This document shows positions 507 to 56,513 of a DNA stretch of 64,000 nt, piece by piece. The notes beneath the pieces are model-generated. The model was given only the letters and a program-made list of their open reading frames with translations, searched no databases and had not been told where the DNA came from. The translations under genes were made by a program, and so were the position numbers. This DNA comes from a virus (lineage: Duplodnaviria > Caudoviricetes). The stretch's first letter is position 1; each line of letters opens with the position of its first letter. The stretch lies in IMG/VR virus record IMGVR_UViG_2923098224_000002, positions 31,541-95,540 of that record; one strand, written 5' to 3'.

Positions 507-596
507 TACCCGCATTTTACCGCGTTAGTTGTCTATACGTTATGAGGGCGCCCGTTCAGCGCTCTTTTATTTTTGCGAAAAGGAGACGGTTTAATG

Positions 597-1394
597 AAGA
601 GATTACGAGTTATTAATACGGAGACAGGCGAAGACTGGTCGGAAATGTACACGCTGCGGCACCGCAACCAAGACGCAGCCTTTCGTCAGCAGCAAGAAAA
701 AACAGCCGATCGGCGCGATTTCTCAAACGCCAATATGTCTAATATTCACGAAGTCTATGACGCTCTTACGACGGCACAGTGTGGCTATCTGATGCTGCTT
801 CAGTGCTACGTCGACTACAACGGTGTTCTAATAAAATCCAGCCGTAATAAAACGCCGATGACCACCGCGGACATGATGGACGTTTTGCAGCTCAGTAAAA
901 AACGGATGACCTTTTACGACTTCCTTTCCGCCTGTACCGAGCACGACATCATCCGGGAAGAGAACGGCCGCTACAGTGTAAATGACCGCTACCACTTCAA
1001 AGGTAATTTCGGTAGTCAGCAAGTCGTTAAGCTATACAGCGCGAAGATCAAACGTGTGTACAGCGAAGTGAAGGCGACTGACATCGGTCTGATCTATCGT
1101 ATGCTGCCGTTCATTCATTACGAAACAAACGCTCTGTGCGCAAATCCTTTCGAAAAGAATCCGAAGCGCATACGTTGGTTTAACAAAAAAGAGCTTGCGG
1201 CGGCGATCGGTGTTACCTCGGATACGCTCGGCCGGCGCCTGAAGCAGATGAAATTCGACGGCGAATACGTTGTTGCGCGAATTAAAGTCGGAAGCGAGCC
1301 GGAGCGCTATACGTTTAATCCTAACGTATTCTATCGACAATCCAAGACGCCGGACAAAACGCTGATTGCGCTGTTTAACGTTAAGAAGGTATAA
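597..1394 (+). CDS. RepL-like replication/maintenance protein with C-terminal HTH
   Basis: RBS AAAGGAG before ATG 597; N-terminal INTETGE and C-terminal YTFNPNVFY motifs resemble Firmicute RepL-like proteins. Confidence 0.55.
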   Translation, partial: KRLRVINTETGEDWSEMYTLRHRNQDAAFRQQQEKTADRRDFSNANMSNIHEVYDALTTAQCGYLMLLQCYVDYNGVLIKSSRNKTPMTTADMMDVLQLSKKRMTFYDFLSACTEHDIIREENGRYSVNDRYHFKGNFGSQQVVKLYSAKIKRVYSEVKATDIGLIYRMLPFIHYETNALCANPFEKNPKRIRWFNKKELAAAIGVTSDTLGRRLKQMKFDGEYVVARIKVGSEPERYTFNPNVFYRQSKTPDKTLIALFNVKKV

Positions 1395-1395
1395 T
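1366..1395 (+). promoter_or_regulatory. Candidate sigma-A promoter for the peptide gene
   Basis: TTGCGC (1366-1371), 18 nt, TATAAT (1390-1395). Confidence 0.5.
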
Positions 1396-1419
1396 TTTAC
1401 TATACCGGAGGTGAGGCGA

Positions 1420-1503
1420 ATGGGAATGCCACGAGGAGCTAATCCGTTAGAGAGTGCGATTAGAGGCGCAGGTCCAGCGGAAAGCGCATCACGCGGAGCA
1501 TAA
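1420..1503 (+). CDS. 27-aa concatemer of three arbitrium-type peptides (MGMPRGANPLESAIRGAGPAESASRGA)
   Basis: Manual translation; strong RBS GGAGGTGA at 1407-1414; contains GMPRGA, SAIRGA, SASRGA; followed by terminator. Confidence 0.88.
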   Translation: MGMPRGANPLESAIRGAGPAESASRGA

Positions 1504-1508
1504 AACGA

Positions 1509-1538
1509 AAAAGGACGCCTTATGCGGGCGTCTTTTCT
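1509..1538. terminator. Bidirectional intrinsic terminator
   Basis: AAAAGGACGCC-ttatgcg-GGCGTCTTTT between convergent ORFs. Confidence 0.8.
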
Positions 1539-1681
1539 TCGTCATCTTCCGTTTGTAATTCAAGAACTTCGATCTGCGATTTTAAGATAGCTATGTCTCG
1601 GCTGTTTAGGTTCGTAGGTAATTCAAAGCGCGCAATCTGCCCGTTTGTAAGCGCAATGCGAGCGTATTGTTTTTCGTCCAT
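1520..1681 (-). CDS. Small hypothetical protein (53 aa, MDEKQYARIALTNGQ...)
   Basis: Manual translation; AAGGAG RBS; below ORF-track cutoff. Confidence 0.6.
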   Translation of the reverse strand: MDEKQYARIALTNGQIARFELPTNLNSRDIAILKSQIEVLELQTEDDEEKTPA

Positions 1682-1720
1682 TCGTATAGCTCCTTCGGTG
1701 TTTATGTCTTAAATATATCA

Positions 1721-2533
1721 TCAGCTCTTCCACGAATCAAACGAAGGTATCCGCAGCAGTCCTTTGCGCGTCTTAAATCGATGCTTCACACGGCATTTTA
1801 TCGGCTCTATATTCACGTATTTATCCGTTTCTCCTACGTCTTTCCGCTCCGAATGAAATCTCCGCCGTTCAGCGTGCGGCATAAACTCCATCAGGCCCGC
1901 ATAAGCACCGTCCTCATACGCTAAAACAAGCGCATTATCCTCTTTCCGATAGCCCGTAATCCAAACGTCAGTATATTCGTAATTAACGATCTTCAGCCAA
2001 CGATCTGACCGCTTATTTTCCGCGTAGGACGAGTTAGCGCGCTTCATAACGACTCCTTCAATGCCGGAGCTTTTCGCTAATTCGAAAACAGCGCGGCCAT
2101 TACCTGTAACGCTATCGACAATCTTAACGTTTGGATGATCGAGGGCAAGGCCGCTTAATAATTCCTTCCGCTCATATAACGGTTTCGACGTAACCGATAC
2201 GCCGTCGAGACGCAATATATCAAACACGCAGAATACTATCGGATGATAGCTTTTTTGCGATTGAAACCGCTCCATCATAGCTTCGAAGTCTCCGGCGCCT
2301 GTCGGTCCGGGCACGATAAGCTCGCCATCCAAAATGGTACCGTCCGGAATTTGTATCGTGTGGAGTTCGGGGAATTTAGCGGTGACTTCGTTGTTGTGGC
2401 GCGTGTAGAGGCGCATGCGGCCGCCATCTTTGGACGCGAGCAGGCGGATACCGTCGAATTTGATTTCCGTAATGTAATCGTCAGAGTCGAACGGGTCTTT
2501 TGCGGACTCTAATAGCATTGGCGAAATAAACAA
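1721..2533 (-). CDS. ATP-dependent DNA ligase (SPbeta LigB-like)
   Basis: Motif I EIKFDGIR, LDGELI, FDIL, EGVVMK, WLKI. Confidence 0.92.
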   Translation of the reverse strand: MFISPMLLESAKDPFDSDDYITEIKFDGIRLLASKDGGRMRLYTRHNNEVTAKFPELHTIQIPDGTILDGELIVPGPTGAGDFEAMMERFQSQKSYHPIVFCVFDILRLDGVSVTSKPLYERKELLSGLALDHPNVKIVDSVTGNGRAVFELAKSSGIEGVVMKRANSSYAENKRSDRWLKIVNYEYTDVWITGYRKEDNALVLAYEDGAYAGLMEFMPHAERRRFHSERKDVGETDKYVNIEPIKCRVKHRFKTRKGLLRIPSFDSWKS

Positions 2534-9656: not shown

Positions 9657-11411
9657 TTGGCGTATATTAACGGGAAATGGTTGGATCGTGAAGAGCGGCA
9701 AGAACGTATCGACTTATTGATCGAGAGTGTGCGTCGATTAGCGGCCCTCATTAAAGCGAAAAAAGCCACCGATTACCATATCGATATGTTCCGGAAGAAC
9801 AAGGCCGAATTAATTAAGCTGAAGCGTGTTCATCGTGCCGAGGTGGATATCGCATATTTCACCTACGAGTATTTGAGCGACGGCCTAAATCCGGAAAACG
9901 AGGATAATGTCGTAAGGAACTCGGATGACGGGACGCCTCACGATGGCATTGAAGATATCGCAAAGATACACGAAGAGTTTTTCGAGCTTTGCGATTACGT
10001 CAACGAAGAGAAAAGGAACGCGCGGCTTGCAATCGCGGCTGCTCGGGGCCACTCGAAATCCGGTATGTTTTCGAACGCCTTGCCGTTACATCAGGCGGCT
10101 TACAGAAAACGCAAATATATTCTTGTCATATCAGAGACGGATTCGCTCTCGAAAAAGCTTATCGGATGGGTTAACAAGCAGATGAAGTTTAACGCTAAAC
10201 TGCGGGAAGACTTCGGCCCTATGATGCACGAGTCGGCGAGCCGCAACGAAAAGGATAACGAAGAGGCGTTCATTACCACGACGAATATCCTTATCGAGTC
10301 GTCATCTTCCGGTAAGCAGCTTCGCGGTAAGCGTCACGGAGCTGTCCGGCCGGATCTCGTAATAATTGACGACCCGTCATCGACAAACAACGAAGGAACC
10401 AAGGAAGCACGTGAAAAGCTCGTTCATTGGTTTAACTCGGTCGTTGTTCCGATCGGGTCTAAGGCGACGGCAATCGTGTTAGTCGGGACAATGGTTTCGG
10501 CGACCGGGCTTCTTAACCACGTTCTGAAGCGTAAGGATTTCAAGGCGAGCTTTCACGGAGCGATCATAAGCGAGCCAACACACCCGGAATTATGGGACAA
10601 ATACTGCGAGGTCTATGCGAGAGCAGAAACGATCGAAGAGGCTGACGAATTTTACGAAGCGCATAAAGAGGCGTTGGAGGACGGCGTCGAACTGGCGTGG
10701 CCTTGGCGCTGGACCTATCGCGAGCTTATGCACGAAAAAGTAAACATGGGAACGCGTGCATACAATTCGGAATTCCGAAACTTGGCTTTCAGTGAAGACG
10801 AGCAGTTCTTTTTCCCGGAGAATTACGCTTATTACCACTACTACCACGAGAACGGAACTGCCCATGTCGTATATAACGAATTGAAAATACCGATCAGCGA
10901 TCTTTTGATCGTCGGTGCGTGGGATATCGCGCAAGGAAAAAATGCGCGGTCCTGCTATAACTCGGTTATTACCCTCGGTAAACACGAGCCGACCGGCTAT
11001 ATTTTCGTACTGGACGAATACGCGTCGAAGGAACCGGCGCACGTATACATTGACGTCATTATTCGGAAGATCAAACAATACCGGCATCGTTCCTTCAACG
11101 TCGAAACAATAAACGCGCAGCACGAATACTATCGTCAGCTTCAGGAGCGGGTCCGGCAGGAAGGTCTTTATACGTGCCGCGTGAACGATGTGAAATCGCA
11201 TAAGTCTTCGAAAGACGAGCGTATTCAGTCGATGGAACCGATGCTGCATAACAAAACGCTGATTCTGAACGATAGGCACACGATGCTGCTCGATCAGATG
11301 GCGCAGTATCCTTTCGGCGATTACGTTGATTCACTCGACGCGCTTCAGCAGGCGCTCGAATCCGTATTCAGGCCGAAAACAAGGCTGGTGAAGAAGCCGG
11401 GATGGCTATAA
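9657..11411 (+). CDS. terL: Terminase large subunit
   Basis: TTG start after AAAGGAGG; Walker A ARGHSKS, Walker B VIIDD, nuclease WD and DSLDA. Confidence 0.92.
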   Translation: MAYINGKWLDREERQERIDLLIESVRRLAALIKAKKATDYHIDMFRKNKAELIKLKRVHRAEVDIAYFTYEYLSDGLNPENEDNVVRNSDDGTPHDGIEDIAKIHEEFFELCDYVNEEKRNARLAIAAARGHSKSGMFSNALPLHQAAYRKRKYILVISETDSLSKKLIGWVNKQMKFNAKLREDFGPMMHESASRNEKDNEEAFITTTNILIESSSSGKQLRGKRHGAVRPDLVIIDDPSSTNNEGTKEAREKLVHWFNSVVVPIGSKATAIVLVGTMVSATGLLNHVLKRKDFKASFHGAIISEPTHPELWDKYCEVYARAETIEEADEFYEAHKEALEDGVELAWPWRWTYRELMHEKVNMGTRAYNSEFRNLAFSEDEQFFFPENYAYYHYYHENGTAHVVYNELKIPISDLLIVGAWDIAQGKNARSCYNSVITLGKHEPTGYIFVLDEYASKEPAHVYIDVIIRKIKQYRHRSFNVETINAQHEYYRQLQERVRQEGLYTCRVNDVKSHKSSKDERIQSMEPMLHNKTLILNDRHTMLLDQMAQYPFGDYVDSLDALQQALESVFRPKTRLVKKPGWL

Positions 11412-11427
11412 GAAAGGAGGCGATAAA

Positions 11428-11859
11428 ATGTCGCGTATGAAAGAGCTTGAAGCAAAACTAACGCTTCAGCAACGTAAGGCAGCGCAAGTCGTTGCGAGTA
11501 ATGAAGTCACGCCCGAAGACGGGAACAAACGAAGTCAGGACGCGCTGGCCGAAGAAATCGGGGTAAGTCGTATGACGCTCTATCGATGGCGGTTTCAAAA
11601 TCCGATATTCATCGAATACATGAACCTATTAGCGGACGACATGCTTTCCGGGCACCGGTCCGAAGTATACGGGCAGCTCCTAAAGCTGATAAAAGGACCG
11701 CAGCCTTCAGTTAAAGCTATCGACTTGTTCATGCGTCGTCATGGCTTACTGACCGATCGTCAGATAACGACCAATGAAGCAGACGGAGGCGCCCGCAGTA
11801 ACGAAGATATCGAGAAGGAACTCGAAGAACTGGCTGACATTATCGGAGAGGAGGAATAG
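11428..11859 (+). CDS. Probable terminase small subunit (HTH)
   Basis: SQDALAEEIGVSRMTLYRW HTH; lies between terL and portal. Confidence 0.7.
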   Translation: MSRMKELEAKLTLQQRKAAQVVASNEVTPEDGNKRSQDALAEEIGVSRMTLYRWRFQNPIFIEYMNLLADDMLSGHRSEVYGQLLKLIKGPQPSVKAIDLFMRRHGLLTDRQITTNEADGGARSNEDIEKELEELADIIGEEE

Positions 11860-11861
11860 CG

Positions 11862-13493
11862 TTGGGGTTTTTCAATTTACTAAAGAAACACGACCAGCCT
11901 TCGGATGAGTACACGGTTAGAAAGACGTACAGCATCATTCGGGAAGGCGCGCAATTTCCTCCGGACGATTCAATCAAGAGGTTGGCGAAATATAAACGTA
12001 TGCGTAAGCTCTTCGAAGGAAATCACCGAGACGTATACGAAAGGGCTGCGGACATTTTAAAAGATTCGCCACAAGCGAAACAGCTCGAAAAGCTCTACAT
12101 CGCTATCAATCTCGCGGATATTTTGGTAACGAAGCCTGCGGATCTGTTGGTAGGAGAACCGGTTCACTTTGAGAGCGGACTGGACGACACTAGCGAAGAG
12201 CAAAAGGCGCTCAACCGATATGTAGAAGAAAACGATCTCAATCAACTGCTGCACGAGAGCGCCATGTCGAACGGATATCGCGGTGACGCGTGGATTAAGG
12301 TTCGATTTGGCTACCGCCAAGACTATTCCGAACTTATCGCGAGGGGCTTAGAGATTCCAGAAGATGCGAAAATGGAGTCCGTTGTTGAGCATGTTAATGC
12401 GAATAGCGTTTTCCCTGAGTTTTCAGCCGGGAACGTTAAGCAGATCAAAGCGGTCAATATAGCCCAAGTCGAATGGGTAGAGACGGAGCAGACGGAAATT
12501 CCTTTCCTAAACGTAGAGCGCCATATACCGGGACACATCTTCTATACGCGCTACAGACTATATCAGAATGGCGTCGATGTTTCAGGTGGCGCCCCAATCA
12601 GCGTTTTCAATATAGGCGAAGAGGTGCCGACGGGCCGCGAAGAAGACCACGAAGAAACATTCCTCCCGCACATTCCGGTATTTCACATCCCGTACAAGTC
12701 TATTGATGACAGTTATTTCGGTATTGGTGGATTGGAGAAGATTGAAACGGTATTCGCAGCGATCAACGACCGGCTTGTTCAGATCGATTATATTCTTTGG
12801 AAACACAGTGACCCCACAGCGTACGGTCCGGATTTAGAATCAACTAACGGAGCCGTTCAGTTTGGTGGCAAATACATTCCGGTAAATAAAGACGACCCAA
12901 CGCCCGGATATATGGTGTGGCAGGCTCAGCTTGATGCCGCGTTCAAACAGCTCGACATGCTATTGAGTATTGTCTTTCAGATGTCTGAGACTCCGCAATG
13001 GCTTTTCGGAACAACAATGTCCGGAGACAATTCAGGCGGAACAGGCACGTCGCATACAGACGGTGCGGCGATCAAAGCTCGCTTCATGCCGATTCTTTCG
13101 AAGGTAAAGCGGATACGGGCGCACTATGACCGAGCGGTAAGAGACGCCCTTTGGACGTGTATGCTGCTCGAAAAAGCAGTCGGTGTCATCGACGTTGAAA
13201 ATGCGGTTTATCCACGGGCTATTTGGAGCGATGGACTTCCGAAGAATGAAAAAGAGCTCGCTGAAATTATGCAAATCCGTACAGGCGGCAAGCCTACGAT
13301 TGACGTTCGTGGAGCCATTAAGCAGCAGGACGACGTGGACGACGAGAAAGCTGACGAAGTCATTCGCCGCATTGAAGAAGACGAAAAAACGACGAGCGGC
13401 TTTGTTGACGGATCGATTTTCAATAAGGAAGGACCGGAAAATAGCCACTCAGACGAGGATAAAGAGGAAATCGCAGAGGAGGACGGTAGTTAA
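11862..13493 (+). CDS. Portal protein (SPP1 gp6-like)
   Basis: Position, 543 aa, acidic tail. Confidence 0.85.
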   Translation: MGFFNLLKKHDQPSDEYTVRKTYSIIREGAQFPPDDSIKRLAKYKRMRKLFEGNHRDVYERAADILKDSPQAKQLEKLYIAINLADILVTKPADLLVGEPVHFESGLDDTSEEQKALNRYVEENDLNQLLHESAMSNGYRGDAWIKVRFGYRQDYSELIARGLEIPEDAKMESVVEHVNANSVFPEFSAGNVKQIKAVNIAQVEWVETEQTEIPFLNVERHIPGHIFYTRYRLYQNGVDVSGGAPISVFNIGEEVPTGREEDHEETFLPHIPVFHIPYKSIDDSYFGIGGLEKIETVFAAINDRLVQIDYILWKHSDPTAYGPDLESTNGAVQFGGKYIPVNKDDPTPGYMVWQAQLDAAFKQLDMLLSIVFQMSETPQWLFGTTMSGDNSGGTGTSHTDGAAIKARFMPILSKVKRIRAHYDRAVRDALWTCMLLEKAVGVIDVENAVYPRAIWSDGLPKNEKELAEIMQIRTGGKPTIDVRGAIKQQDDVDDEKADEVIRRIEEDEKTTSGFVDGSIFNKEGPENSHSDEDKEEIAEEDGS

Positions 13494-34121: not shown

Positions 34122-35252
34122 TTAATGTGATTCCTCTTTTTGTTTGCCTTGTAAGATGCCACTGATAAATGTGGAAGCATCCTTCTGCATGTTTGGCATT
34201 AAATGTGAATAGGTGTTAAGTGTAACCTGGATATCTTTATGTCCTAACCTTTCTTGAACAACTTTAGGATGAAACTTTGTTAACAGTAAGGATGCATGAG
34301 AGTGTCTAAGGTTATGGAATGGGATATCAGGTAAATCAAGCTGCTTTAAATAAGCTTTGAACTGTCTTAAAAGGTTTCTTGGATTGATTGCATTCCCTGT
34401 ATCTGTACATACAACTAAATCTCGGTCTGTATAGAGCCCTCCGCATAAGTTCTTCTCTTTCAGTACACGGCTTCGTTGTTTCTTCAGTATATGGATATCA
34501 TGTTCTGATAAGTCGATGGTGCGTGTGCTTGTCGATGATTTTCCACCGTATTTTGTTTGGCCGCCAGAGTGTTCTAATGTTTGAACAATTCTCAAAACAC
34601 CATTATTGAAGTCTATATCCTTAAAACGTAAACCTAAAATTTCACCTTGTCTAAGCCCGAAAGAAATCGCTAACCAAAATGCGATATAGTAACGACTGTT
34701 TTTAGTGTGATCCAGGAATAAAGACATCTGTTCCGCTGACCAAACTTCAACTTCTTTACGCTTAACTGATGGCTTCCTAACTTTTTCAACTGGGTTCTTT
34801 TTAATAAACTCATCTTGGACAGCTGTTTTCATTACATTGTTGAGTACGTGATATATCTTCTTTATTGTGGCAGCTGATAAGCCGGCATTAACTAACCTTG
34901 TTATAAATGCTTGTACCTTTTGAGTTGTTATATCGCTTAGTTTCATGCTTCCAAAGGCGGGGAGTATATGATTTTTCAAATTATAATGATAAACCTTTAG
35001 AGTTTGGTTGCTTACATCTGGAGTTTTGATGTTAAGCCAATACTCAACCAATTCCTTGAAGGTTGAATCATTATCTTTAAGAAGATCCCCAGAGTGATAT
35101 AACTGGAGATCTTCTCTTAATGCTTCTTCTGCATCTTTCTTTAACTTGAACCCACTTCGTTTACGCTGCTTCCGTCTGCCGTTCTCGTCTTTCCCTATAT
35201 CAAACACATAGTACCAATTGCCGTTTCTCTTATCTTTTTTTACTGATGCCAT
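34122..35252 (-). CDS. int: Tyrosine integrase with arm-binding domain
   Basis: GKDENGRRKQ...GF..K, GLRQGEIL, HNLRHSHA, LGH...TLNTY. Confidence 0.95.
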   Translation of the reverse strand: MASVKKDKRNGNWYYVFDIGKDENGRRKQRKRSGFKLKKDAEEALREDLQLYHSGDLLKDNDSTFKELVEYWLNIKTPDVSNQTLKVYHYNLKNHILPAFGSMKLSDITTQKVQAFITRLVNAGLSAATIKKIYHVLNNVMKTAVQDEFIKKNPVEKVRKPSVKRKEVEVWSAEQMSLFLDHTKNSRYYIAFWLAISFGLRQGEILGLRFKDIDFNNGVLRIVQTLEHSGGQTKYGGKSSTSTRTIDLSEHDIHILKKQRSRVLKEKNLCGGLYTDRDLVVCTDTGNAINPRNLLRQFKAYLKQLDLPDIPFHNLRHSHASLLLTKFHPKVVQERLGHKDIQVTLNTYSHLMPNMQKDASTFISGILQGKQKEESH

Positions 35253-35273
35253 TAATCGTTCTCCTTTTTATTT

Positions 35274-35936
35274 TTACCAGCTAGGGCGCTCTCCCCACCC
35301 GGTATTGCTTTTTTCGTAACCTTCTTTTAATGCACTGATAACATGTTCCTTAGCGTCTTTATTGAACTTTGTTATATCTTTACGGAATAAAGAAACTAGA
35401 AATCGGAAGTTATCAGGGGAATCTCCCATTGATAACATCAGCTTATGAAGATTTTCGATGACTGTGCCGAATTCACTAGGATTTATCGTATAGTACCAAT
35501 CAAGGTCGTTTTTAATCTCATTTATTTTTTTATTTATCATTTCATCATAGCTTGCATGTTGCTCTTGGATTCGTATAGCTTCAGCTTGTTCAAGTAAGTG
35601 TTTTTGGTACTCAGGATCATTCATTAACTCAATTTCCCGTTCGATCCAGGCTTCTTCTGCTGCCTTTTCAGCTGCTATTTTTTCAGGAGACTTAAAACCA
35701 AGAGCTTCTAAGTACATTTCTAAATTCTCTTCTGCGATTCCGAGCTTTCTAAATAGTTCTAATAATGTGTTGTAATCCGGATTCTTGTTGTGTCCATTTT
35801 CAATTTGACTAATGTACGCTCCGGACTTACCTAACGATTTTGATAGCTCTTGAGAATTGATCTTCTTTTTCTTCCTATAGTATTTGACCACTGATCCTAA
35901 CTTGTTTTCTTCATCAATCTTAATATTATTATCCAT
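35274..35936 (-). CDS. Xre-family repressor
   Basis: SQELSKSLGKSGAYISQIENG. Confidence 0.85.
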   Translation of the reverse strand: MDNNIKIDEENKLGSVVKYYRKKKKINSQELSKSLGKSGAYISQIENGHNKNPDYNTLLELFRKLGIAEENLEMYLEALGFKSPEKIAAEKAAEEAWIEREIELMNDPEYQKHLLEQAEAIRIQEQHASYDEMINKKINEIKNDLDWYYTINPSEFGTVIENLHKLMLSMGDSPDNFRFLVSLFRKDITKFNKDAKEHVISALKEGYEKSNTGWGERPSW

Positions 35937-36139
35937 GATTATAATGTCACCTCAAAAATAATCATAACATATGGTGAATAAAAAGAATATATTTATTATT
36001 TTCTTATGGATTACGATAAAACTTTAATAAAAATAAAAAAACTTTCATGAAAAGTATTGAAATATTAATGAGTGTGGTTTATGATTGGATTAACCCGAAA
36101 AGGAAAGGGTTAAACAGGAAACAGAAGAGAGGTGGACGG

Positions 36140-36364
36140 ATGAACCAAGAGGAACTAAACCAAGAGCAACTGGAAGAAATCTTCAAAAAGGTTGCGCTTG
36201 ATGTTCAAGATATTCGCAAAATTACTGGGGCTGGAAGAGATACAGCATATGCCCTTTGTAAGAGTGGGAAATTTCACGCAGTGCGGGTAGGGAAAAACAG
36301 AATCAAAGTACCAACAGAAGGTTTCAAAAAATGGTGGTACGGTGAGCAACAAATCGCTCAATAG
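36140..36364 (+). CDS. Excisionase-like HTH protein
   Basis: LDVQDIRKITGAGRDTAY...VRVG..IKVP; RBS GAGAGGTGG. Confidence 0.78.
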   Translation: MNQEELNQEQLEEIFKKVALDVQDIRKITGAGRDTAYALCKSGKFHAVRVGKNRIKVPTEGFKKWWYGEQQIAQ

Positions 36365-36553
36365 GACATAACAGCAACACCGCAATACATAATCGCAATA
36401 CATAACTTGTTCCATAAAACTGGAGGATGAACTATAATGAGATCATATGTTCTGTGTGAACTAAAAGAGATCCTATATTCAGATTCGGGTTAGTGGTGAC
36501 ATCGCCACTGTCTGTTGCTCTGAATTAGTGACACACTACAGGGGGTTATTCGG

Positions 36554-37516
36554 ATGATAGCAAAAGAGAGAGAAGCTAAGAAACCAGAAGTAGATGCAAA
36601 GGTACGTCTTGAAATGTCAGATATTAATGAACAGTATGAACAAACTGACGCATTAATTGATCAATTAATCAACAGTAGCTGTTCGATTGAACGTGAATGG
36701 GCAGCAATGTATCAGATCAAACGTAAGCAAGACAGAGGCGAAATAAACGCACATCAGGCGCTTAAAGCAATTGGGAAGCTTGATCCCAAGTCTCAAGAAA
36801 TGCGTGTATTCACTTACATAATTCCGTTGTATTACTACCTTAGAATGGCTGAATACTCAAATCTTGCAGAAATGTCGACAGTTGTTGATCTTGATTTTAT
36901 TGAAAACAATGAACAGATTAAAAGCTCCTTTTATAACCGTCTGATGGCTTTGTTGGGCGCTTCAGCATTCAGTCAGAATAAAATGACTCAAGCTCGTTTT
37001 TATTGCTCATACGGCATTAATGTAACGAATATTGATAGGCTTGTCGCTTATAGCTATCTAACTTTGGGTAACACTTATTTGCTTGATGATTATGAAAAAG
37101 CAAAAGAATATTACCTGGCCGGTTTAAAACATACTGAGAATAACCCCTTGGCAAAATTACAGCTAACTAGAAGCCTTTGTTTCTTGGAAAACCATTGGAA
37201 TCAAGAGAACTTTTGGCTAAACCCTGATTCAAATGAAGTTACAGATATCCAAGAAATTGCACATTATCACATCAAAAAAAACAACTTGCAACAGGCTAAA
37301 GAAATATTGGAGAACTTAGAGCAGCAACCGAATATTCATAATGACTTTGGCATTCATTTTTATCTAAAAGGACTAGCTTATGAAGATAAGAGATTCTTTT
37401 ATGAGTCTATAAAACACTTTAAGCTGTCCGGCGATCTATACAGCGTACGCTTACCTTTGGATAAATTAAGGGAAATGGGTGAGGACGAGCAGATTTTGGA
37501 TTTACTTGCCCTTTAA
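36554..37516 (+). CDS. aimR: AimR arbitrium receptor lacking the N-terminal HTH
   Basis: SDIN..TD.LI, SYLTLGN, LCFLENHW..EN.WLN, DIQEIAH, YLKG, SI.HFK.SGD...RLPL...MGE..QIL.LL match SPbeta/phi3T AimR TPR region; adjacent aimP. Confidence 0.9.
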   Translation: MIAKEREAKKPEVDAKVRLEMSDINEQYEQTDALIDQLINSSCSIEREWAAMYQIKRKQDRGEINAHQALKAIGKLDPKSQEMRVFTYIIPLYYYLRMAEYSNLAEMSTVVDLDFIENNEQIKSSFYNRLMALLGASAFSQNKMTQARFYCSYGINVTNIDRLVAYSYLTLGNTYLLDDYEKAKEYYLAGLKHTENNPLAKLQLTRSLCFLENHWNQENFWLNPDSNEVTDIQEIAHYHIKKNNLQQAKEILENLEQQPNIHNDFGIHFYLKGLAYEDKRFFYESIKHFKLSGDLYSVRLPLDKLREMGEDEQILDLLAL

Positions 37517-37552
37517 ATCGCGCGATATCACTTGAAAGGAGGTGAAAACTAT

Positions 37553-37687
37553 ATGAAAAAAGTATTTATCGGTCTTACTATCGTAGCTTCATTGGCTGTT
37601 GGTTTCGTTGCAGGTCAACAAACAACTATTCATAGCGCATCAGGGGAAGGAACATTCCATGTAGCAGGTTTTGGACGTGGTGCGTAA
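37553..37687 (+). CDS. aimP: AimP pro-peptide (44 aa), mature peptide GFGRGA
   Basis: AAAGGAGGTGA RBS; MKKVFIGLTIVASLAVGFVAGQQTTIHSASGEGTFHVAGFGRGA. Confidence 0.92.
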   Translation: MKKVFIGLTIVASLAVGFVAGQQTTIHSASGEGTFHVAGFGRGA

Positions 37688-37704
37688 GCATTACATATCC
37701 ATTT

Positions 37705-37733
37705 GAAGGGGTGAGCGATTCGTTCACTCCTTC
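37705..37733 (+). terminator. Hairpin after aimP
   Basis: GAAGGGGTGA-gcgattcgt-TCACTCCTTC. Confidence 0.55.
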
Positions 37734-37787
37734 TCATTACATATTTTTAGGATAAAAATAAAATAAGTGAATAAAAGGAGAAATGTT

Positions 37788-38705
37788 ATGACAAACGAAT
37801 TATCAACAGAGTTCAAATATGATTTAGTCGATCAATCAACAGCTGAATTTCTGAAACAGAAAGAATTCAACATGCGTGAGATTGTAGGCAAGGCTTATAC
37901 CGAGCTAGGAAGAGAGCTGAAGGAAGCGCAAGAAATGCTCGCTATGAATGGGTACGGGTGTTTTGAGGAATGGTGTATGTCTATAGGAATTAATAGAAAG
38001 GCAGTTAATAGGTTAATACAACGATATGAATTGATTGTGACAAATTGTCACAATCAAGAATTAATAGAAGACCTACCTGTTTCTCTAACATATGAAATAG
38101 CTAAACCTTCATCAGAATCAACAGAGTCAAAGAAACAAGCTAAGGAAGCAGTCCTAAAAGGTGAAGTCAAGACATTAAAGGAATACAAAGAGCTTGAAGC
38201 TAAGTTGAGGAAAGCTGAAGAGGATAATAAGAATCTTAGTTATGAATTAAGCCAAGAAAAGAAGAACAGGACAGTTGTTGAAAAAGTCATTGATAACACT
38301 GACTACAAACAAATAGACACATTAAAAAAAGAATTAGAGTACAAAAATAAAAAATATGAAAACTTATCAAAACAAAAAATGATCTTAGAGCAACAACTTG
38401 AAAGCAGTGATGTGAAAGTAAAAGAATACGAGGAGCTAACAAACAAATTAAAGGCCGTAACAAGAGAACAGGATGATCTAGGGAGACAAGTTGAGGCCAC
38501 TTCAGAGCTTTCTGAAATGGTTTGGGAGATTGAAAAACTACTAAAAGGTAGTTTAGCGCCTGTAAAGTATGCAAAGGCCATTAGGAATATGAGTGACAAT
38601 CAAATTATAATGAACAATCTTGATTCTGTAATCGGGCATGTGGAATCCTGGTGCAAAGAAATGAGAAAAATTACGAATAAAAATAATATTATTGAGGTGG
38701 TTTAA
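37788..38705 (+). CDS. DUF3102-like protein
   Basis: ELGRELKEAQE...GCFEEWC motif; coiled-coil C-terminus. Confidence 0.7.
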   Translation: MTNELSTEFKYDLVDQSTAEFLKQKEFNMREIVGKAYTELGRELKEAQEMLAMNGYGCFEEWCMSIGINRKAVNRLIQRYELIVTNCHNQELIEDLPVSLTYEIAKPSSESTESKKQAKEAVLKGEVKTLKEYKELEAKLRKAEEDNKNLSYELSQEKKNRTVVEKVIDNTDYKQIDTLKKELEYKNKKYENLSKQKMILEQQLESSDVKVKEYEELTNKLKAVTREQDDLGRQVEATSELSEMVWEIEKLLKGSLAPVKYAKAIRNMSDNQIIMNNLDSVIGHVESWCKEMRKITNKNNIIEVV

Positions 38706-38889
38706 TGTGACGGAAGATATTTTTGATCTACAGGATGAGCTTAAAGAGGCTGAAATAAATTTAAAAGCTGTTGAAGAAAAACTAGTAGACCATGACATTC
38801 TAGTTCTGAGACGTGAGGAATTAAAGGAACAAATCACCGAAGTAAAACGGTTGATCTCTAATCATCCTGACAATAAAGGGGAGAGATGA
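38692..38889 (+). CDS. Small coiled-coil protein
   Basis: Operon context. Confidence 0.55.
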   Translation: MRWFNVTEDIFDLQDELKEAEINLKAVEEKLVDHDILVLRREELKEQITEVKRLISNHPDNKGER

Positions 38890-39431
38890 GCGCTCTGATG
38901 AATTCGCATAAGAAACACCTTGAAGAAAAACAATGTTCCCTCAAGGTTTTGCAAAAACAAATTGATGAGGTATATGAATTAGAGCCAAGAAATGCACTCG
39001 AACTCGAACGAAAAAAGGTTGTATTGAAACGAGAAATTGAAGACTTAAAACAATTGATTAAAGGTGAAAACAGAACTGTATTAGACATTGTTATCAGTGG
39101 AATGCTTGATGGACAATACTACGAACATATGAAAAAAGTTTCTGGCTATACTGTGGATTACATAATTGATGACTGTATAGTCATGGAATATGTAGAAGAA
39201 ACAATTACAAATGACTACTGGTAAAGAGTTAAGGCTATTAAGAATGAACTATGGAACAATATCCTAGAAGAGTCGCCATACTTGGAGAGTAGAGAAATTG
39301 ATGAGCATGTATTTTATATTCCAGTGAGAAAGGGATATGAGGGTGAAGGGATAAGAAAATTTATTAGTGTTTTTCAAAATCTAATTGGCAATGAGATTAC
39401 TCTAATATTCAAAAAGGAGAGTAATAGATGA
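38886..39431 (+). pseudogene. Hypothetical gene with in-frame TAA at 39222-39224
   Basis: Same frame stays open for 68 more codons to a TGA overlapping the next ATG. Confidence 0.6.
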
Positions 39432-39940
39432 CAGCAAGAAGAAGTGTGCGTATCGACTTAGCAGCATCAGCAAACGGATTTAAACGGATCAGAGAAGATA
39501 AGTCGCTTTATTATAACCAAAAACATAATGCAATACTTAGCACGAATGGTCACATAGCAGAGGTTATTAGTCCTCAACCATATGATTCAGTGGTTATTGG
39601 GCTGCCTTACATATTGCGTGATGGTGTTTGCAAGAAAGTTACATACAGAAAATCAACGGAAAATTTAAAAAATGACATAAGAATAATGCTTGAGAACCTG
39701 GATAAATTCTCATCTAACGGTTTTCATCAAATGACTGTTACAGAACGATTTGATACCGGTTTAATCAAGCTATCTTCTTCATATTGTCCGGAAGCTTACG
39801 CTGATATATCGAAGTTTAACGGTAGGAATGTGGAGAGTGGGGAGCAACTGTGGTGCAAACTTGAAACAAATGAAAACAGAGCGCCGATTGTTACAGCTAT
39901 TGAAAACAGTAAGCCGTCAGAATACTTGAATTTAATTTAA
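39428..39940 (+). CDS. Hypothetical protein
   Basis: AAAGGAG RBS; 170 aa. Confidence 0.65.
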   Translation: MTARRSVRIDLAASANGFKRIREDKSLYYNQKHNAILSTNGHIAEVISPQPYDSVVIGLPYILRDGVCKKVTYRKSTENLKNDIRIMLENLDKFSSNGFHQMTVTERFDTGLIKLSSSYCPEAYADISKFNGRNVESGEQLWCKLETNENRAPIVTAIENSKPSEYLNLI

Positions 39941-39949
39941 AAGGAGAGA

Positions 39950-41005
39950 ATGCTTATAAAAATTGAGGTTTTAACATCAGGAAAAACGTTCAAGAATTAT
40001 AAAGTGCTTTGCAGAGAACTTGGGCTAGAAGTAAAACGTTCAGGGGATAGTCGAAAAGCGCAGTTTAAAGAACTAGAACGGTACTGTACATATAGCAAAG
40101 TTGGTCATTCCATAATTATAGAGGAAGTCTTTGAGCAGCCTCTTCAAAAAATGAAACGGCAGGGGAATAACACTGTTTATAGTGAACTGTTACAGCTCCT
40201 TATATTGGATATGCTTGCCCAAAGCAAGAATGGAAACATGTCTATAAGTAAAGGACGATTAATAAAATCAGTGAGCTTGGTTAATCAAAATTATAAGTAT
40301 TGCTTTGAAAAAAGAAAGTCTCTAGCTAGATATGCAAACACGGATACAGAAATTGTGAAAGATTTTTACGATAGTAGCAATAATAGCTTCAAGAAAGCGG
40401 TTGTACAAGCCCTAAACAAGTTAGTTGAGAAAAGGCTAATCATGTATGACGTTATTACTAAGGTTTGTGAAAAGGGGAAATTCAGACCACGTAAAGCGTC
40501 CTCGGCCGAGAAGAAAATGATTATGGCATGCGAGAAAAAAGTGCTTGATGAGCTTGGTTATAAAGAATTAAGTCATGTGCGTGTATCAAGGCACTGGAAT
40601 GAATTTAAACGGAGATCGGAGACTCTATTAAAAGAATGTAGCAATCTCAAATATTACTTTGCTGCTTATGACATCACCGCAAATGATAAATACATTGAAA
40701 ATGAGTGTGAGGAGCTCATTGGTTTTCTGTTGAAAGAAATTGAGCGGGTTGACTATAAGGAGAAACTGAATCATACAGCTTGTTCAAAGTTATTGAAAAA
40801 TGCGGAAGGTAGACACAAAAAGTCGTATTCAATATTTAGAGAAAACAATTATAGAATCAGTGAAAATTACATTCGTGACTTCAAAAAGCTAATTGACCTC
40901 CTTATAAATGAGGACGCTGAGAGTATAAGCGATGAAATTGAACAGATGGAAGCCCAAGATGATCTATCCTATGATATAGCGCAGTCTTTGCCAAGTGGTC
41001 TATAA
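39950..41005 (+). CDS. Hypothetical DNA-binding protein, possible replication protein
   Basis: FKNYKVLC..LG..VK.SGDSRKAQ.KEL N-terminus; followed by origin-like hairpins. Confidence 0.55.
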   Translation: MLIKIEVLTSGKTFKNYKVLCRELGLEVKRSGDSRKAQFKELERYCTYSKVGHSIIIEEVFEQPLQKMKRQGNNTVYSELLQLLILDMLAQSKNGNMSISKGRLIKSVSLVNQNYKYCFEKRKSLARYANTDTEIVKDFYDSSNNSFKKAVVQALNKLVEKRLIMYDVITKVCEKGKFRPRKASSAEKKMIMACEKKVLDELGYKELSHVRVSRHWNEFKRRSETLLKECSNLKYYFAAYDITANDKYIENECEELIGFLLKEIERVDYKEKLNHTACSKLLKNAEGRHKKSYSIFRENNYRISENYIRDFKKLIDLLINEDAESISDEIEQMEAQDDLSYDIAQSLPSGL

Positions 41006-41321
41006 AAAGTAACGGTTTAAACTTCCTATAGTATAAACAAGAAACACAATAGGAACATTAAACCGTCAAATTTTTGAGTTTAAGTATTACATAGAAAAAA
41101 GAGTGTGAAACACCAGTCTGAAGGGGGTTTGGGGGATGGTTGGCTGTAAGGTTAATAATTTGGAGCGTAGCGAGGGATTATTAACCTAAAGCATCCCCCA
41201 AGTGTTCTTTGATCATTTGAAATTAAGAAGAGCCTAGATGTACAAAGTAAACTTTGTCCATCTTCTCATCATGATTAACAAGTTAATCATTCTTCGGAAT
41301 AAACAATTGGAGGATTACTTA

Positions 41322-44225
41322 TTGAAAAATGAAAATTTAACTAAATCAGTGTTCGTGTACTCTTTAGATTCATCTGCTTTTTATAATGATAAAGAAGAAA
41401 AATTAAATCAAGATTTGCTTCAACTTCGCCTTTATAAAAAGTTTTTGCAGAAGTTGGCTAAAAAAGTGGCAAAAATGAATGATTCAAATGTATCCGATAT
41501 TCATTTAAATCTAACTGGTAAGCTCTTTGAGGAAGAAAGAAGCTTTAAGGAATTGGAACAATCGCTAATTACATATATCAAGAAAAAAGGTGAAAGTGAG
41601 TCCAGGCTTTCGAATGATATTGATGAGCTAATGGCCTGCAAATACAACAAAGCGAAAATCAACCGTCTTAAAAAAATTACTAACTGTTGGATTAACGAAA
41701 AGAAAGATGAATTAATTGAAGAGCAACAAAGTTTCAAAGGGACAAGAACCCTTAGAGGTGATTCGCTTAAAACAAAAGATGGAGAAGTTAGATCACAAAG
41801 GGTTATTTCTTTATTTGATTCAGTGCTAATTAGAACACTTGGATTGGACTACGATCAGATCACTGAGGAGATTATGATAGTTGAATCCTTTTACCATAAC
41901 GTTTTTAGAAGCTTGGTTCAGAATGGTTATTATTTTAATAATGAAAAATACGTTTACTATGCTTCATCAGCAGGACAAATTAGACAAAAGAAGGGTGTAT
42001 TCATCAAAGAAAAGACGTATCTGAAGAAGAAAAACACTCTGATGTGTGGGCTTAGTGAAGAGGTAATTAATTCTAAGGGCGGCATGAGCATTAACAAATG
42101 GATCGCTTACCTTGCCTTATCAAATAGCGCCAGTACATTATGGGAAGGGTTTAATATTGATGAGTGTATAGTTGTAAATGATTTTGAGACGGATGTGTCC
42201 ACTGAGGTTGATTACATAAACGATGAAACATACGAAATTAAAAGAGAGTACAAGTCTATTCCAATAAATCATACGGATGGCTGTGGAATGATTCTCCCTG
42301 AGCTTTCGGAGAGTGCATTCATGTTTAGAGCCCCTTTTATGAAAGGAATGTTAGTCCCATTTCCATTTGATGAGTATTCTAAATTATGCCGGAAGACCAA
42401 AATTAAAGATATATACGGCAAGGAATGGGATATTGTTAAAGACGGTATTAAAATTATCCTAACGAAGAGTCAGTTTAAGCTCTGGAAACATTATGATTCA
42501 TGGGATGATTACAAATCCAAATTTAAGAAGTATGAGTGTCAGGCAGCCAAGCTGAATGAAGAAGAGGATGAATTTAAAAACAGTGAACTTAATTATCAAA
42601 TGATCCAGACACTAACCGACACGACAGATGAAGAATTAGATAAGCTTTCAGAAAACACAGTGAAGAGGATCCAAACGCTTTACAAAGATAAAGAATCAAT
42701 GCTTGAGGTTATTGGAGCCGTTGAAAGCAATGCCCATAAAAATAACTTTCAGAAAGCTCATTTGATTTATCCTGAGTTGCTTAATGATAACCATTCAAAG
42801 GAGATTATTAAGAAGAATAAAAAGCGTTTGGTGAAGGAAGCAAAAGCAGGAAAAATTCTGCTAGAAGGCTCTCATTATACTTTTATTATTCCAGATTTGT
42901 ATGCTGCTTGCGGTTATTGGTTTTGCGGTGATTCTGATCCAAAGGTTTTGCTAAATGACGGAGAGGTTAGTTGTAAGCTTTTTAATAATCAGCAAAAATT
43001 AGATGTGTTGAGGCCTCCTCATCTATCTAGGGAGCATGGCATTAGGATCAACAAGTTAAATGATGATCTTAAAGACTGGTTCATTACGAAAGGCGTGTAT
43101 ACGTCCACTAAAGATGCCTTGTCAAGACTTCTGCAGTTTGATGTGGACGGAGATAAAGCACTTTTAGTTAGCGACAGCACTTTTGTTGAGATAGCAGAAA
43201 GAAATATGAAAAATGATGATATCGTTCCTCTTTATTATGAAATGAAGACAGCAGAAAACCAAGAAATCAATAACGAGAACATCTATAAAAGCTTGGAACT
43301 GGCTTTCGAGGTAAATATTGGTGAATATAGCAATAACATAACCAAGGTGTGGAATAGTGATAAGGTTGATTTAGACGTGATCAAATGGCTTACAATGGAA
43401 AATAACTTTGAGATTGATTATGCCAAGACCTTATACAAACCAACCCGTCCTGAACATGTTAGTCAAAGAATTAATGGTTTCCTGAAAGGGACTTATAACA
43501 GGAAAGTTCCTCACTTCTTTATTTACGCAAAAGACAAGAAAAGAAAGAACGTCAGATCAAGAAATGATTCTGTAGTTAATCGGTTGGGTGAAAAAATACC
43601 GAATAACAGGGTGAACTTTAAGAGGCTGGCGGGAGAATTTGATTACACAAAACTGAAGAATGAGAATGCTACTCTTGGGCTTGATCAAGAGGTATTGACA
43701 CGATTTAATGAACTCTACAAGTTGTATTCGAAGCAGCAACAGGAATTAGGTACAAAGGGAATTCTCCTGCAAATAAAAGATGAATTACTCAAAGATTATA
43801 GCAAAAAAAAGGTTGAAGATACAATGATTGTGACAGTCTATACAATGCTTGATCGTAATAAGCACTGGAAGGCCAAACAACAGAAAAAACAAAATGTTTC
43901 TCGTCAAGAAGCAGAATGGCATGTAACAAAAGAGATCAGAGAAACCTTGCTGAGTATTAGAGACAGCAGTTACATAACAGATATATTGGTGGAGTATCTA
44001 TTCAATACTAAATGCTCTAAGCATAAGGATACACTATACAATTGTTTTGGGTATAACATTGTAAGGAATTTGAAAAAGAACATTCGCAGAGCTATTAAAT
44101 GTGTTGATTGTGAGCGGGAAATCGAAAAGGGAACTAGGTGTGATAAGTGTCAAAAGGATAGGGAAAGAGAGTTAAATAAGCTGAGAAAACGAAAAGAACG
44201 TAAAAATAAAAAATGTCACGCTTAA
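41322..44225 (+). CDS. yonO: YonO-type single-subunit DNA-dependent RNA polymerase (RdRP-like fold)
   Basis: SAGQIRQKK, TDGCGMI, FRAPFMKG, R.PHL..EH, catalytic QFDVDGD, IDYAKT; C-terminal CVDC...CDKC; TTG start after GGAGG. Confidence 0.88.
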   Translation: MKNENLTKSVFVYSLDSSAFYNDKEEKLNQDLLQLRLYKKFLQKLAKKVAKMNDSNVSDIHLNLTGKLFEEERSFKELEQSLITYIKKKGESESRLSNDIDELMACKYNKAKINRLKKITNCWINEKKDELIEEQQSFKGTRTLRGDSLKTKDGEVRSQRVISLFDSVLIRTLGLDYDQITEEIMIVESFYHNVFRSLVQNGYYFNNEKYVYYASSAGQIRQKKGVFIKEKTYLKKKNTLMCGLSEEVINSKGGMSINKWIAYLALSNSASTLWEGFNIDECIVVNDFETDVSTEVDYINDETYEIKREYKSIPINHTDGCGMILPELSESAFMFRAPFMKGMLVPFPFDEYSKLCRKTKIKDIYGKEWDIVKDGIKIILTKSQFKLWKHYDSWDDYKSKFKKYECQAAKLNEEEDEFKNSELNYQMIQTLTDTTDEELDKLSENTVKRIQTLYKDKESMLEVIGAVESNAHKNNFQKAHLIYPELLNDNHSKEIIKKNKKRLVKEAKAGKILLEGSHYTFIIPDLYAACGYWFCGDSDPKVLLNDGEVSCKLFNNQQKLDVLRPPHLSREHGIRINKLNDDLKDWFITKGVYTSTKDALSRLLQFDVDGDKALLVSDSTFVEIAERNMKNDDIVPLYYEMKTAENQEINNENIYKSLELAFEVNIGEYSNNITKVWNSDKVDLDVIKWLTMENNFEIDYAKTLYKPTRPEHVSQRINGFLKGTYNRKVPHFFIYAKDKKRKNVRSRNDSVVNRLGEKIPNNRVNFKRLAGEFDYTKLKNENATLGLDQEVLTRFNELYKLYSKQQQELGTKGILLQIKDELLKDYSKKKVEDTMIVTVYTMLDRNKHWKAKQQKKQNVSRQEAEWHVTKEIRETLLSIRDSSYITDILVEYLFNTKCSKHKDTLYNCFGYNIVRNLKKNIRRAIKCVDCEREIEKGTRCDKCQKDRERELNKLRKRKERKNKKCHA

Positions 44226-54020: not shown

Positions 54021-54127
54021 AACAATATGGGAATCTTGTAAAAGGTCAGGGCAAGATATGTGTAAATGTGGGTTAATTACACAAATACAACACTCTATGG
54101 CGTGTACATAGAGGGTTAGGAGGAAAT

Positions 54128-54727
54128 ATGGATTTAAAAACTGTTAAAGAATTTTTAGAGCAAAACAAAGAAAAGGAAGAAGTTAAATCATATTTAGAAG
54201 AACTGTCTGCCGTATCTGCTGATAAGGTGTCAGGGTTTTTAGATACTGATGAAGGCAAGAAAATTTTGCAGCCACGATTAGATGAACATTTCTCAAAGAG
54301 TCTTAATACGTGGAAAACCAATAATCTGCAGAAACATGTTGATGAAAAGGTTAAAGAGTTATACCCAGAAAAAGATCCACTGGAATTAAAAGTAGCTAAT
54401 TTAGAAAAGCAATTGGCCATGAAAGAAATGCGCTCTTTTGCAATGGATAAAGCGCATAAAGAGGGATTACCTTTAGAATTAGTGGATCTTGTAATGGGTG
54501 AAGATCAGGAGAAGACTAGTTCTAATTTAGATCTTTTAAAAGGCGTGTTTTCCCAACATATTGAGAATAAAACACAAGAAAGATTAAAAGCCGATGGCAT
54601 TGATCCTAAAGGTTCACAAGAACCACCGAAGACATTCACAATGGAGCAACTTAAGAACATGTCTGAAGAAGAATATATTAAAAATCAAGAAGCGGTTGAC
54701 GCTTATCTTAATAGTCAATCCAACTAA
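54128..54727 (+). CDS. Scaffolding protein (DUF4355-like)
   Basis: K.L.TWK.NNL motif; precedes capsid gene. Confidence 0.75.
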   Translation: MDLKTVKEFLEQNKEKEEVKSYLEELSAVSADKVSGFLDTDEGKKILQPRLDEHFSKSLNTWKTNNLQKHVDEKVKELYPEKDPLELKVANLEKQLAMKEMRSFAMDKAHKEGLPLELVDLVMGEDQEKTSSNLDLLKGVFSQHIENKTQERLKADGIDPKGSQEPPKTFTMEQLKNMSEEEYIKNQEAVDAYLNSQSN

Positions 54728-54755
54728 TTTAATTACATAAGGATAAGGTGATAAT

Positions 54756-55574: not shown

Positions 55575-55635
55575 TAAAAATTGAGGGCGGAGGCTAATAT
55601 CTCTGCCCTTTTTTATCTTAATAAGGAGGAATTAA

Positions 55636-55782
55636 ATGTTTGTATTAAATAAAAAAACAGGGCTCACTTGGAATGTTGAAGGTGAGTTATTAGAAAGGCT
55701 TTTAAAGTCGCCAAATTATGAAATTGTTGAATCAAAAGAAAAACCAGTAAGAAAACCTCGGCCAAAGAAGGGTTCAGAATAA
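55636..55782 (+). CDS. Small head-associated protein (48 aa)
   Basis: AAGGAGG RBS; manual translation. Confidence 0.55.
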   Translation: MFVLNKKTGLTWNVEGELLERLLKSPNYEIVESKEKPVRKPRPKKGSE

Positions 55783-56099: not shown

Positions 56100-56100
56100 G

Positions 56101-56448: not shown

Positions 56449-56513
56449 ACAAACGAAGTGCTTTAAATTTTGAGGCACTTCTTTTTTTTATTTGTAGAAA
56501 AATTACTAAGGAA

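Follow-up and report, generated by a model that had tools for sequence, protein, structure and literature searches.

Arbitrium is a textbook case of communication between viruses. In these systems hexapeptide signals bind the receptor AimR, stop aimX expression and promote lysogeny (PMC13220667; 10.1101/2025.10.13.681967). Here we describe a mini-gene of 27 codons that encodes three published arbitrium signals in tandem. The gene lies in a 64,000-nucleotide stretch (positions 31,541 to 95,540) of the Caudoviricetes record IMGVR_UViG_2923098224_000002 in IMG/VR, hereafter termed the window, and has variable relatives in other viral records. Comparison of these relatives leads us to regard it as probably a leaderless gene that forges the signals of rival phages, its peptides acting on the rivals' AimR after proteolytic release.

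The canonical AimP of SPbeta, phi3T, Goe11 and other clade-2 phages carries the same six-residue signals as the mini-gene, likewise has its last unit end at the stop codon, and acts on AimR, which is also the presumed target of the mini-gene product. However, AimP has a signal peptide and one C-terminal peptide and is encoded beside or overlapping aimR, whereas mini-gene products have no signal peptide and two to four units, and the aimR of the phage studied here is about 21.4 kb away. In the aimP genes seen here the peptide is preceded by Val-Ala, in contrast to the Met-Gly, Glu-Ser, Tyr-Gly and Ala-Ser junctions of the mini-genes. The tandem Phr pro-peptides of phage Rap-Phr systems, such as those of phi3T and phi105, also hold several pheromones per precursor (PMC11343458). 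Because the Bacillus subtilis proteases WprA and Bpr release both internal and C-terminal units from tandem Phr precursors (PMC11343458, section 7), these systems offer a precedent for freeing the internal units of an array. Yet tandem Phr precursors are exported by a signal peptide, are encoded beside their receptor and contain variants of the phage's own pheromone, whereas the mini-gene is leaderless and specifies foreign signals.

In the crosstalk described among SPbeta-like phages, the peptide of one phage represses the AimR of another, to the benefit of the emitter (PMC13220667; 10.1101/2025.10.13.681967). The mini-gene would resemble these cases in its effect, but the published emitters use their own secreted cognate signal, whereas here a separate gene specifies several foreign signals with no export signal. 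Leaderless communication peptides of the RopB type (PMC10518010) show that short peptide signals of RRNPPA systems can do without a leader; they differ from the mini-gene in being single peptides encoded beside their own receptor for self-communication, whereas the mini-gene is an array with no adjacent receptor, presumably directed at an AimR pocket that needs free peptide ends. No paper on leaderless arrays of foreign arbitrium signals was found, and the exact junction strings occurred in 0 papers, in a search that left supplements and about 1.7 million PMC articles outside its reach.

The mini-gene occupies positions 1420 to 1503 on the plus strand of the window, with an ATG at 1420, coding sequence to 1500 and a TAA at 1501 to 1503. 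Its codons (ATG GGA ATG CCA CGA GGA GCT AAT CCG TTA GAG AGT GCG ATT AGA GGC GCA GGT CCA GCG GAA AGC GCA TCA CGC GGA GCA TAA) translate as M-GMPRGA-NPLE-SAIRGA-GPAE-SASRGA-stop. This is exactly the 27-residue open reading frame (ORF) with three tandem arbitrium units that a sequence-only reading had reported before the present analysis, although that reading began the unit at position 1366. The latter is merely an in-frame TTG within the preceding gene (573 to 1394), which yields a listed 45-residue ORF; the true start is the ATG at 1420. A six-frame search locates the SPbeta signal GMPRGA at 1423 to 1440, directly behind the initiator Met, and the phi3T signal SAIRGA at 1453 to 1470. The third unit, the published clade-2 signal SASRGA (1483 to 1500), abuts the stop codon exactly with its last residue. 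Between the units lie the spacers NPLE (1441 to 1452), an instance of a conserved xPLE spacer that occurs in seven codon versions, and GPAE (1471 to 1482), conserved on comparison of alleles. The Arg codons of the three RGA units differ (cga, aga and cgc), as had been noted. The absence of a signal peptide also holds: the product has no hydrophobic segment, whereas canonical aimP genes of the same record do encode a signal peptide.

A consensus Shine-Dalgarno site, GGAGGTGA, at 1407 to 1414 bears out the strong ribosome-binding site claimed earlier; its GGAGG ends 8 nt 5' of the ATG, and the site is kept in 21 of 21 records. A consensus -10 box, TATAAT, at 1390 to 1395 overlaps the stop codon of the upstream gene and belongs to a portable cassette of which the mini-gene is part. 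The -35 element that the sequence-only reading considered plausible is weak, however: a possible TTGCGC at 1366 to 1371 has three of six matches and an 18-nt spacer. Directly after the stop codon, as had been described, stands an intrinsic terminator hairpin (1505 to 1542, both strands). The segment from 1498 to 1545 folds at -19.9 kcal/mol (z = -4.8), and none of 200 shuffled versions folds as well. The terminator scan lists the hairpin on the minus strand, where further genes converge on the mini-gene, and it can therefore serve both converging units. One of the minus-strand frames, an ORF of 53 residues at 1520 to 1681 with no Pfam or PHROGs family, is found 3' of the cassette in several relatives but not in all.

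Seven types of unit found in the mini-gene and its relatives match published arbitrium signals letter for letter: GMPRGA, SAIRGA, SIIRGA, SASRGA, SPSRGA, GIVRGA and GFTVGA. Five of these (GMPRGA, SAIRGA, GIVRGA, SASRGA and GFTVGA) are given as signals in section 8 of PMC13220667, and SIIRGA and SPSRGA are given as such in 10.1101/2025.10.13.681967. The product of the window thus contains the known AimR ligands GMPRGA, SAIRGA and SASRGA (PMC13220667; 10.1101/2025.10.13.681967; PMC6458997). The identity of GMPRGA and SAIRGA as arbitrium peptides, stated in the first two of these sources, is as the sequence-only reading gave it, and SASRGA, which that reading could only suppose to be a natural variant, is named as a natural signal in all three. 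Other first units, EIKPGA, EIKLGA, EIRPGA, ELNPGA and ELKPGG, form an E-type that resembles tails of sister phages' own AimP (EIKVGG, ELRPGG and GIKVGG) and also the Wbeta pheromone EIKPGG (PMC8878798). It seems, then, that the arrays are aimed at sister phages in addition to SPbeta-like ones, a suggestion that rests on resemblance and not on identity.

Relatives of the mini-gene were scarce among predicted proteins. A word-based protein search with the 45-residue TTG frame, which we do not take for the real product, found two relatives, while degenerate and cassette-based DNA patterns matched 4, 9 and 19 IMG/VR contigs. In total the cassette family comprises 21 viral records with 15 distinct peptides, and the database protein P0002 provides a 16th. 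Since only two members of the family, whose genes have 17 to 39 codons, occur among predicted proteins, annotations may lack entire classes of genes of this kind. The products measure 17 to 39 residues, carry two to four signals each, and all end at a TAA just 5' of the terminator. Written without the initiator Met, the array of the window is GMPRGA-NPLE-SAIRGA-GPAE-SASRGA. Other IMG/VR arrays that begin with the SPbeta signal include GMPRGA-SPLE-SIIRGA-GPAE-SASRGA, GMPRGA-NPLE-SAIRGA-SPSRGA, GMPRGA-SSLE-SASRGA-SPSRGA, GMPRGA-SPLE-GIVRGA and GMPRGA-SPLE-SIIRGA-GPVRGA. Those with an E-type first unit include GEIKPGA-NPLE-SIIRGA-GPAE-SASRGA, GEIKPGA-NPLE-SAIRGA-SPSRGA, GEIRPGA-SPLE-SASRGA-SPSRGA and GELNPGA-GPQLY-GMPRGA-SPLE-GIVRGA, and a diverged cassette in six IMG/VR records specifies GFTVGA-KELPKPKY-GFPRGA.

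The way in which these alleles differ argues for selection on the encoded peptides. When main-class alleles were compared in 66 pairs, the leader, which includes the -10 box and the ribosome-binding site, had a mean identity of 0.97, the upstream 400 nt 0.92, the terminator 0.89 and the ORF 0.70, and in all 66 pairs the ORF is less conserved than the upstream stretch. ORFs differ in length only by multiples of three, and all of them retain the stop codon. Variation within GMPRGA, the RGA triplets, GPAE and the P-L-E of the first spacer is confined to third positions and is synonymous throughout. Amino-acid changes concentrate mainly in residues 1 to 3 of the units, the part that gives receptor specificity (PMC6458997). 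This is how a translated gene looks when purifying selection preserves the character of an arbitrium peptide and diversifying selection acts on its identity. Selection at the protein level, proposed earlier from a single sequence, is borne out by the synonymous changes at constant residues and the in-frame indels. The comparative test suggested at that time was also run: the ribosome-binding site and the spacers are conserved, the repertoire of peptides varies, and the arrays are not linked to aimR.

The upstream gene (573 to 1394, plus strand) encodes a protein of 273 residues that belongs to PHROG 9501 and has a weak helix-turn-helix (HTH) match; it marks the insertion site and is not part of the mini-gene. 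Apart from this gene, the neighbours of the mini-gene are converging accessory genes, with no receptor gene adjacent. The upstream gene has about 82% DNA identity to genes of the phages 268TH007, 268TH002 and phi18-2 that are annotated as "DNA binding protein" or "AsnC family protein", and the DNA match to all three ends exactly at the end of the gene. In 268TH007 and phi18-2, which were read past this point, the terminator (AACGAAAAAGGACGCC) comes directly behind the stop codon (gtaTAA or gcaTAA). The window shares both elements, but there they are separated by an insertion of 109 nt (1395 to 1503, plus strand) with ATAA at each edge.

A search with the upstream protein returned 49 loci, of which two are cut inside the gene and 47 could be examined 3' of it. 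The mini-gene is present in 17 of the 47; 28 run from the stop codon straight to the terminator or to other sequence, and two end at a contig edge. Three further records provide a second context, in which the cassette follows another gene, one of 147 residues that also ends in GTA TAA inside the TATAAT. There the -10 box reads TGGTATAAT, an extended -10. Because it occurs behind two different upstream genes, the cassette is portable. It also has features of a moron, namely its presence or absence among relatives (17 versus 28 of 47), a terminator and a conserved -10 box, although the promoter scan listed no promoter here. We take the mini-gene to be an accessory gene, portable and self-contained, that belongs to a group of temperate Bacillus phages of 65 to 70 kb and comprises a -10 box, a strong ribosome-binding site, a short ORF and a terminator. 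In three relatives that do not have the mini-gene, L058 (around 2307 to 2345), L001 (4860 to 4900) and L002 (4860 to 4900), GGTATAA is fused directly to AACGAAAAAGG. This junction joins the left edge of the cassette to its right flank and looks as if the cassette had been lost precisely, from one ATAA repeat to the other. In more distant relatives the stop context is different (..CCGTAG or ..CCGTAA).

The sequence-only reading remarked that no aimR lies next to the mini-gene. This is true locally, but the same phage has its own aimR and aimP about 21.4 kb upstream, outside the window. The AimR (positions 10348 to 11574 of the record) has 408 residues and matches PF22871 (E = 5.9e-26) and PHROG 1728. 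A canonical aimP overlaps the last 62 nt of aimR and encodes a signal peptide and the tail DIRVGA, where "tail" denotes the last six residues of AimP, taken as the signal by analogy. About 240 nt 3' of this pair, where SPbeta-like phages would have aimX, the record contains an ORF of 202 residues with a weak HTH match (record region 10348 to 12492). As its receptor and signal genes indicate, the carrier is an arbitrium phage of another specificity than that of the xxxRGA signals. In a census of AimR, the first 10 of 10 records, eight carriers and two named non-carriers, had a match, as did 18 of a further 30. Twelve carriers have an identifiable aimR and aimP, with the own tails DIRVGA (five), ANQLGG (three), INAIGG (two), EIKVGG (one) and ELRPGG (one). 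In none of the 12 does the array contain the carrier's own tail.

These observations are compatible with the following mechanism. The mini-gene would be transcribed as the last cistron of a rightward operon and perhaps also from its own promoter in the lysogen. From a Met-Gly start the initiator Met is removed, following the established rule for methionine aminopeptidase. Its removal should expose the native N-terminus of unit 1, and the stop codon would give unit 3 its native C-terminus. Peptidases would then free the hexapeptides, which might occupy the AimR of SPbeta-like rivals. As a consequence aimX would be switched off, and an incoming rival would be pushed into lysogeny or a resident rival kept from inducing. 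The carrier's own AimR would not be addressed, since it is paired with a different tail, DIRVGA. In published work, non-cognate clade-2 peptides repress AimR, promote lysogeny of incoming phages and reduce induction (PMC13220667), and signal-emitting phages gain fitness (10.1101/2025.10.13.681967). AimR holds the hexapeptide by its free amine (through Q299, E300 and M296) and by its free carboxylate (through R228; PMC6458997, section 11). Since both free ends are anchored, the units must be cut out of the chain, and the uncut 27-mer is unlikely to be a canonical ligand.

As to where such peptides would act, we lean slightly towards the interior of the producing cell. Action at this site would need neither export nor Opp and would be a private benefit, protecting only the cell of the carrier. 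This route is favoured because an export signal is absent in every allele and because the first and last units each gain one native end at no cost. On a possible but less probable route, the product would be set free when the cell lyses, extracellular proteases would mature it and neighbouring cells would take up the peptides; we think some other site of action unlikely.

Several points weigh against signal forgery as we propose it. Up to four internal cuts would be needed in the allele of the window, and we know of no peptidase that makes them. The product has no export signal that would carry it to targets outside the cell. Moreover, the junctions vary among the arrays, from Glu-Ser and Tyr-Gly to a spacer-less Ala-Ser, and one array has an extra "SA". 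The Glu-Ser junctions that the sequence-only reading offered as cleavage sites are accordingly not general, since some units abut directly (SAIRGA-SPSRGA and SASRGA-SPSRGA) and others are joined at Tyr-Gly. That reading's proposal of a mimic aimed at the AimR of rivals is nevertheless supported by the comparative pattern, including the missing own tail. The promoter scan of the window listed no promoter for the mini-gene, and the 18 public runs that contain the sampled words of window positions 1100 to 1800 are all DNA or of unspecified kind, with no RNA run among them. The GFTVGA class shows limited diversity, with one identical peptide in six records. Searches of the literature, which did not extend to supplementary peptide tables, found no paper in which GPVRGA or GPVRGV, GFPRGA or any of the E-type units in its exact form is given as a natural signal. 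There were no matches in species-representative genomes, in metagenome contigs or in named phage records, which at the sensitivities used indicates a narrow distribution rather than absence. An exact search for the ORF in viral contigs also returned 0 matches, from which nothing follows, since such a search may omit the record of the window itself. Two complete carriers, G014 and G019, are without any AimR match, and an arbitrium system of its own is thus no precondition for carrying the array. Finally, the signals of co-resident arbitrium elements, GFGRGA in this record and SAIRGA in record G008, are absent from the respective arrays, although two cases say little.

The units of the mini-gene are the best-known peptides of the field, placed cleanly between a stop codon and a terminator, as one might expect of an engineered insert or of an assembly or database artefact. 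Nevertheless, we consider an origin of this kind so improbable as to be negligible. Of 24 listed public runs, 18 contain all sampled words of window positions 1100 to 1800, and these come from six studies. In four of four runs compared, each of another study, a single contig spans the 701-nt stretch with 0 differences; two of these are sludge and marine-sediment metagenomes and the other two are from organisms, and because the four may be sources of the DNA itself they are not strictly independent. The identity across runs suggests that a strain or phage with this allele is widespread, or that a common laboratory or product strain is involved. In addition, 14 other natural variants are spread over 20 further viral records, where they show synonymous drift and stand beside different neighbours. 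We reject a planted or artefactual insert on the public-run contigs together with this natural variant family, and the latter settles that the mini-gene DNA is real. Chance is also a poor source of the units: when nine published clade-2 hexapeptides were compared with the six-frame translation of the 95.5-kb record, four occurrences were found where about 0.027 are expected. Three of them are in the mini-gene, and one, GFGRGA, is the C-terminus of a canonical aimP (37667 to 37684). A real locus might still be a non-functional by-product, with scraps of aimP 3' ends gathered by illegitimate recombination at the end of an operon and either untranslated or without effect. The location, where transcription units converge and the neighbouring genes vary, would suit such a process, as would the apparent precise loss of the cassette between two ATAA repeats in relatives and the lack of RNA among the 18 runs. 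We judge it improbable nonetheless, given that the ribosome-binding site, the ATG and the leader are held at 0.97 identity while the ORF varies, that length changes stay in frame with the stop kept, and that constant residues change only synonymously. Furthermore, no remnant of the part encoding a signal peptide is present, and the same cassette sits behind two different upstream genes.

If the gene is functional, its product might work uncut, as a multivalent ligand for one or several AimR at once, either mimicking the signals or blocking the pocket, in which case it would be an antagonist and rivals would stay lytic or unresponsive. Several receptor-specific units stand on each chain just 0 to 5 residues apart, and no protease would be needed for the native N-terminus of unit 1, which Met removal provides, or for the native C-terminus of the last unit. 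We hold this to be quite unlikely, because AimR binds both free termini (PMC6458997, section 11), so that internal units cannot bind canonically, and because, in the related Rap system, binding and stabilisation of the receptor were far weaker with immature tandem peptides than with mature ones (PMC11343458, section 7). Alternatively, the target might not be the AimR of rivals at all, but Rap/Phr-type RRNPPA receptors of the host or of mobile elements, Opp, for which the peptides would compete as substrates, or the arbitrium circuit of the carrier itself, which they would modulate. Opp does transport hexapeptides of such a size, RRNPPA receptors are numerous in Bacillus (10.1101/2025.10.13.681967), and GPVRGA, GFPRGA and the E-type units are not among the published AimP signals that we found. 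There is, however, little to be expected of this alternative when seven unit types are AimP signals letter for letter, when variation falls exactly on the specificity positions 1 to 3 while RGA is kept, and when the carrier's own tail is missing from 12 of 12 arrays. Forgery of rival signals for AimR remains the reading that we prefer.

It is tempting to extend this reading to the phage group as a whole, though we do so tentatively. Temperate Bacillus phages may wage signal warfare with hypervariable "forgery cassettes", unexported arrays of rival passwords whose slots would be recombined to track local rivals, aimed at SPbeta-like phages through the xxxRGA units and at sister phages through the E-type units. 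That phages are influenced by each other's secreted signals was shown in 2025-2026. A gene that makes only foreign signals, if confirmed as such, would turn this incidental crosstalk into an evolved weapon and would open deception among communicating viruses to direct testing. A driver for the diversification of AimP and AimR codes would also suggest itself, and nature would have supplied a design by which SPbeta-like phages can be forced into dormancy.

Two other interpretations of the mini-gene sequence were tried and rejected. For an antisense gene, most alleles do have a -1 frame that contains no stops, yet no minus-strand ORF of at least 20 residues with a start codon spans 1420 to 1500, and the composition of the sequence is in any case expected to lack antisense stops. 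A leader peptide or attenuator was dropped because only the terminator and converging genes lie 3'.

In two records a clade-2 arbitrium element and the carrier phage lie on one contig, so that rivals share cells with carriers, a point in favour of the forgery reading. In the window, another integrated element begins in the second half, from about 34.1 kb (34122 to 44225), with 35% guanine plus cytosine versus 47% for the carrier phage. It encodes a tyrosine integrase (34122 to 35252, minus strand), an HTH protein (35274 to 35936, minus strand), a clade-2 arbitrium pair (36554 to 37687, plus strand) and an ORF of 995 residues with no Pfam match (41238 to 44225). The pair consists of an AimR of 320 residues (E = 6e-71) and a canonical aimP with its ATG at 37553 and the tail GFGRGA. 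This AimR is without approximately the first 70 positions of the family profile, the presumed DNA-binding part, and could act as a peptide sink. In record G008 (53540 to 57379) an intact phi3T-type aimP with the tail SAIRGA lies beside the carrier phage, and the accompanying aimR match holds one TGA and one TAG. This clade-2-type gene with its two stops and a fragment are the sole AimR matches of G008; the receptor is thus decaying beside an intact signal gene.

Some distance beyond the terminator, the window contains a gene for an ATP-dependent DNA ligase (1721 to 2533, minus strand; PF01068, E = 2.8e-30). It has about 66% DNA identity to ligase genes of SPbeta-like phages, for example SPbetaL1, Goe12, Goe13 and SPR, a likeness that hints at gene exchange between the two phage families.

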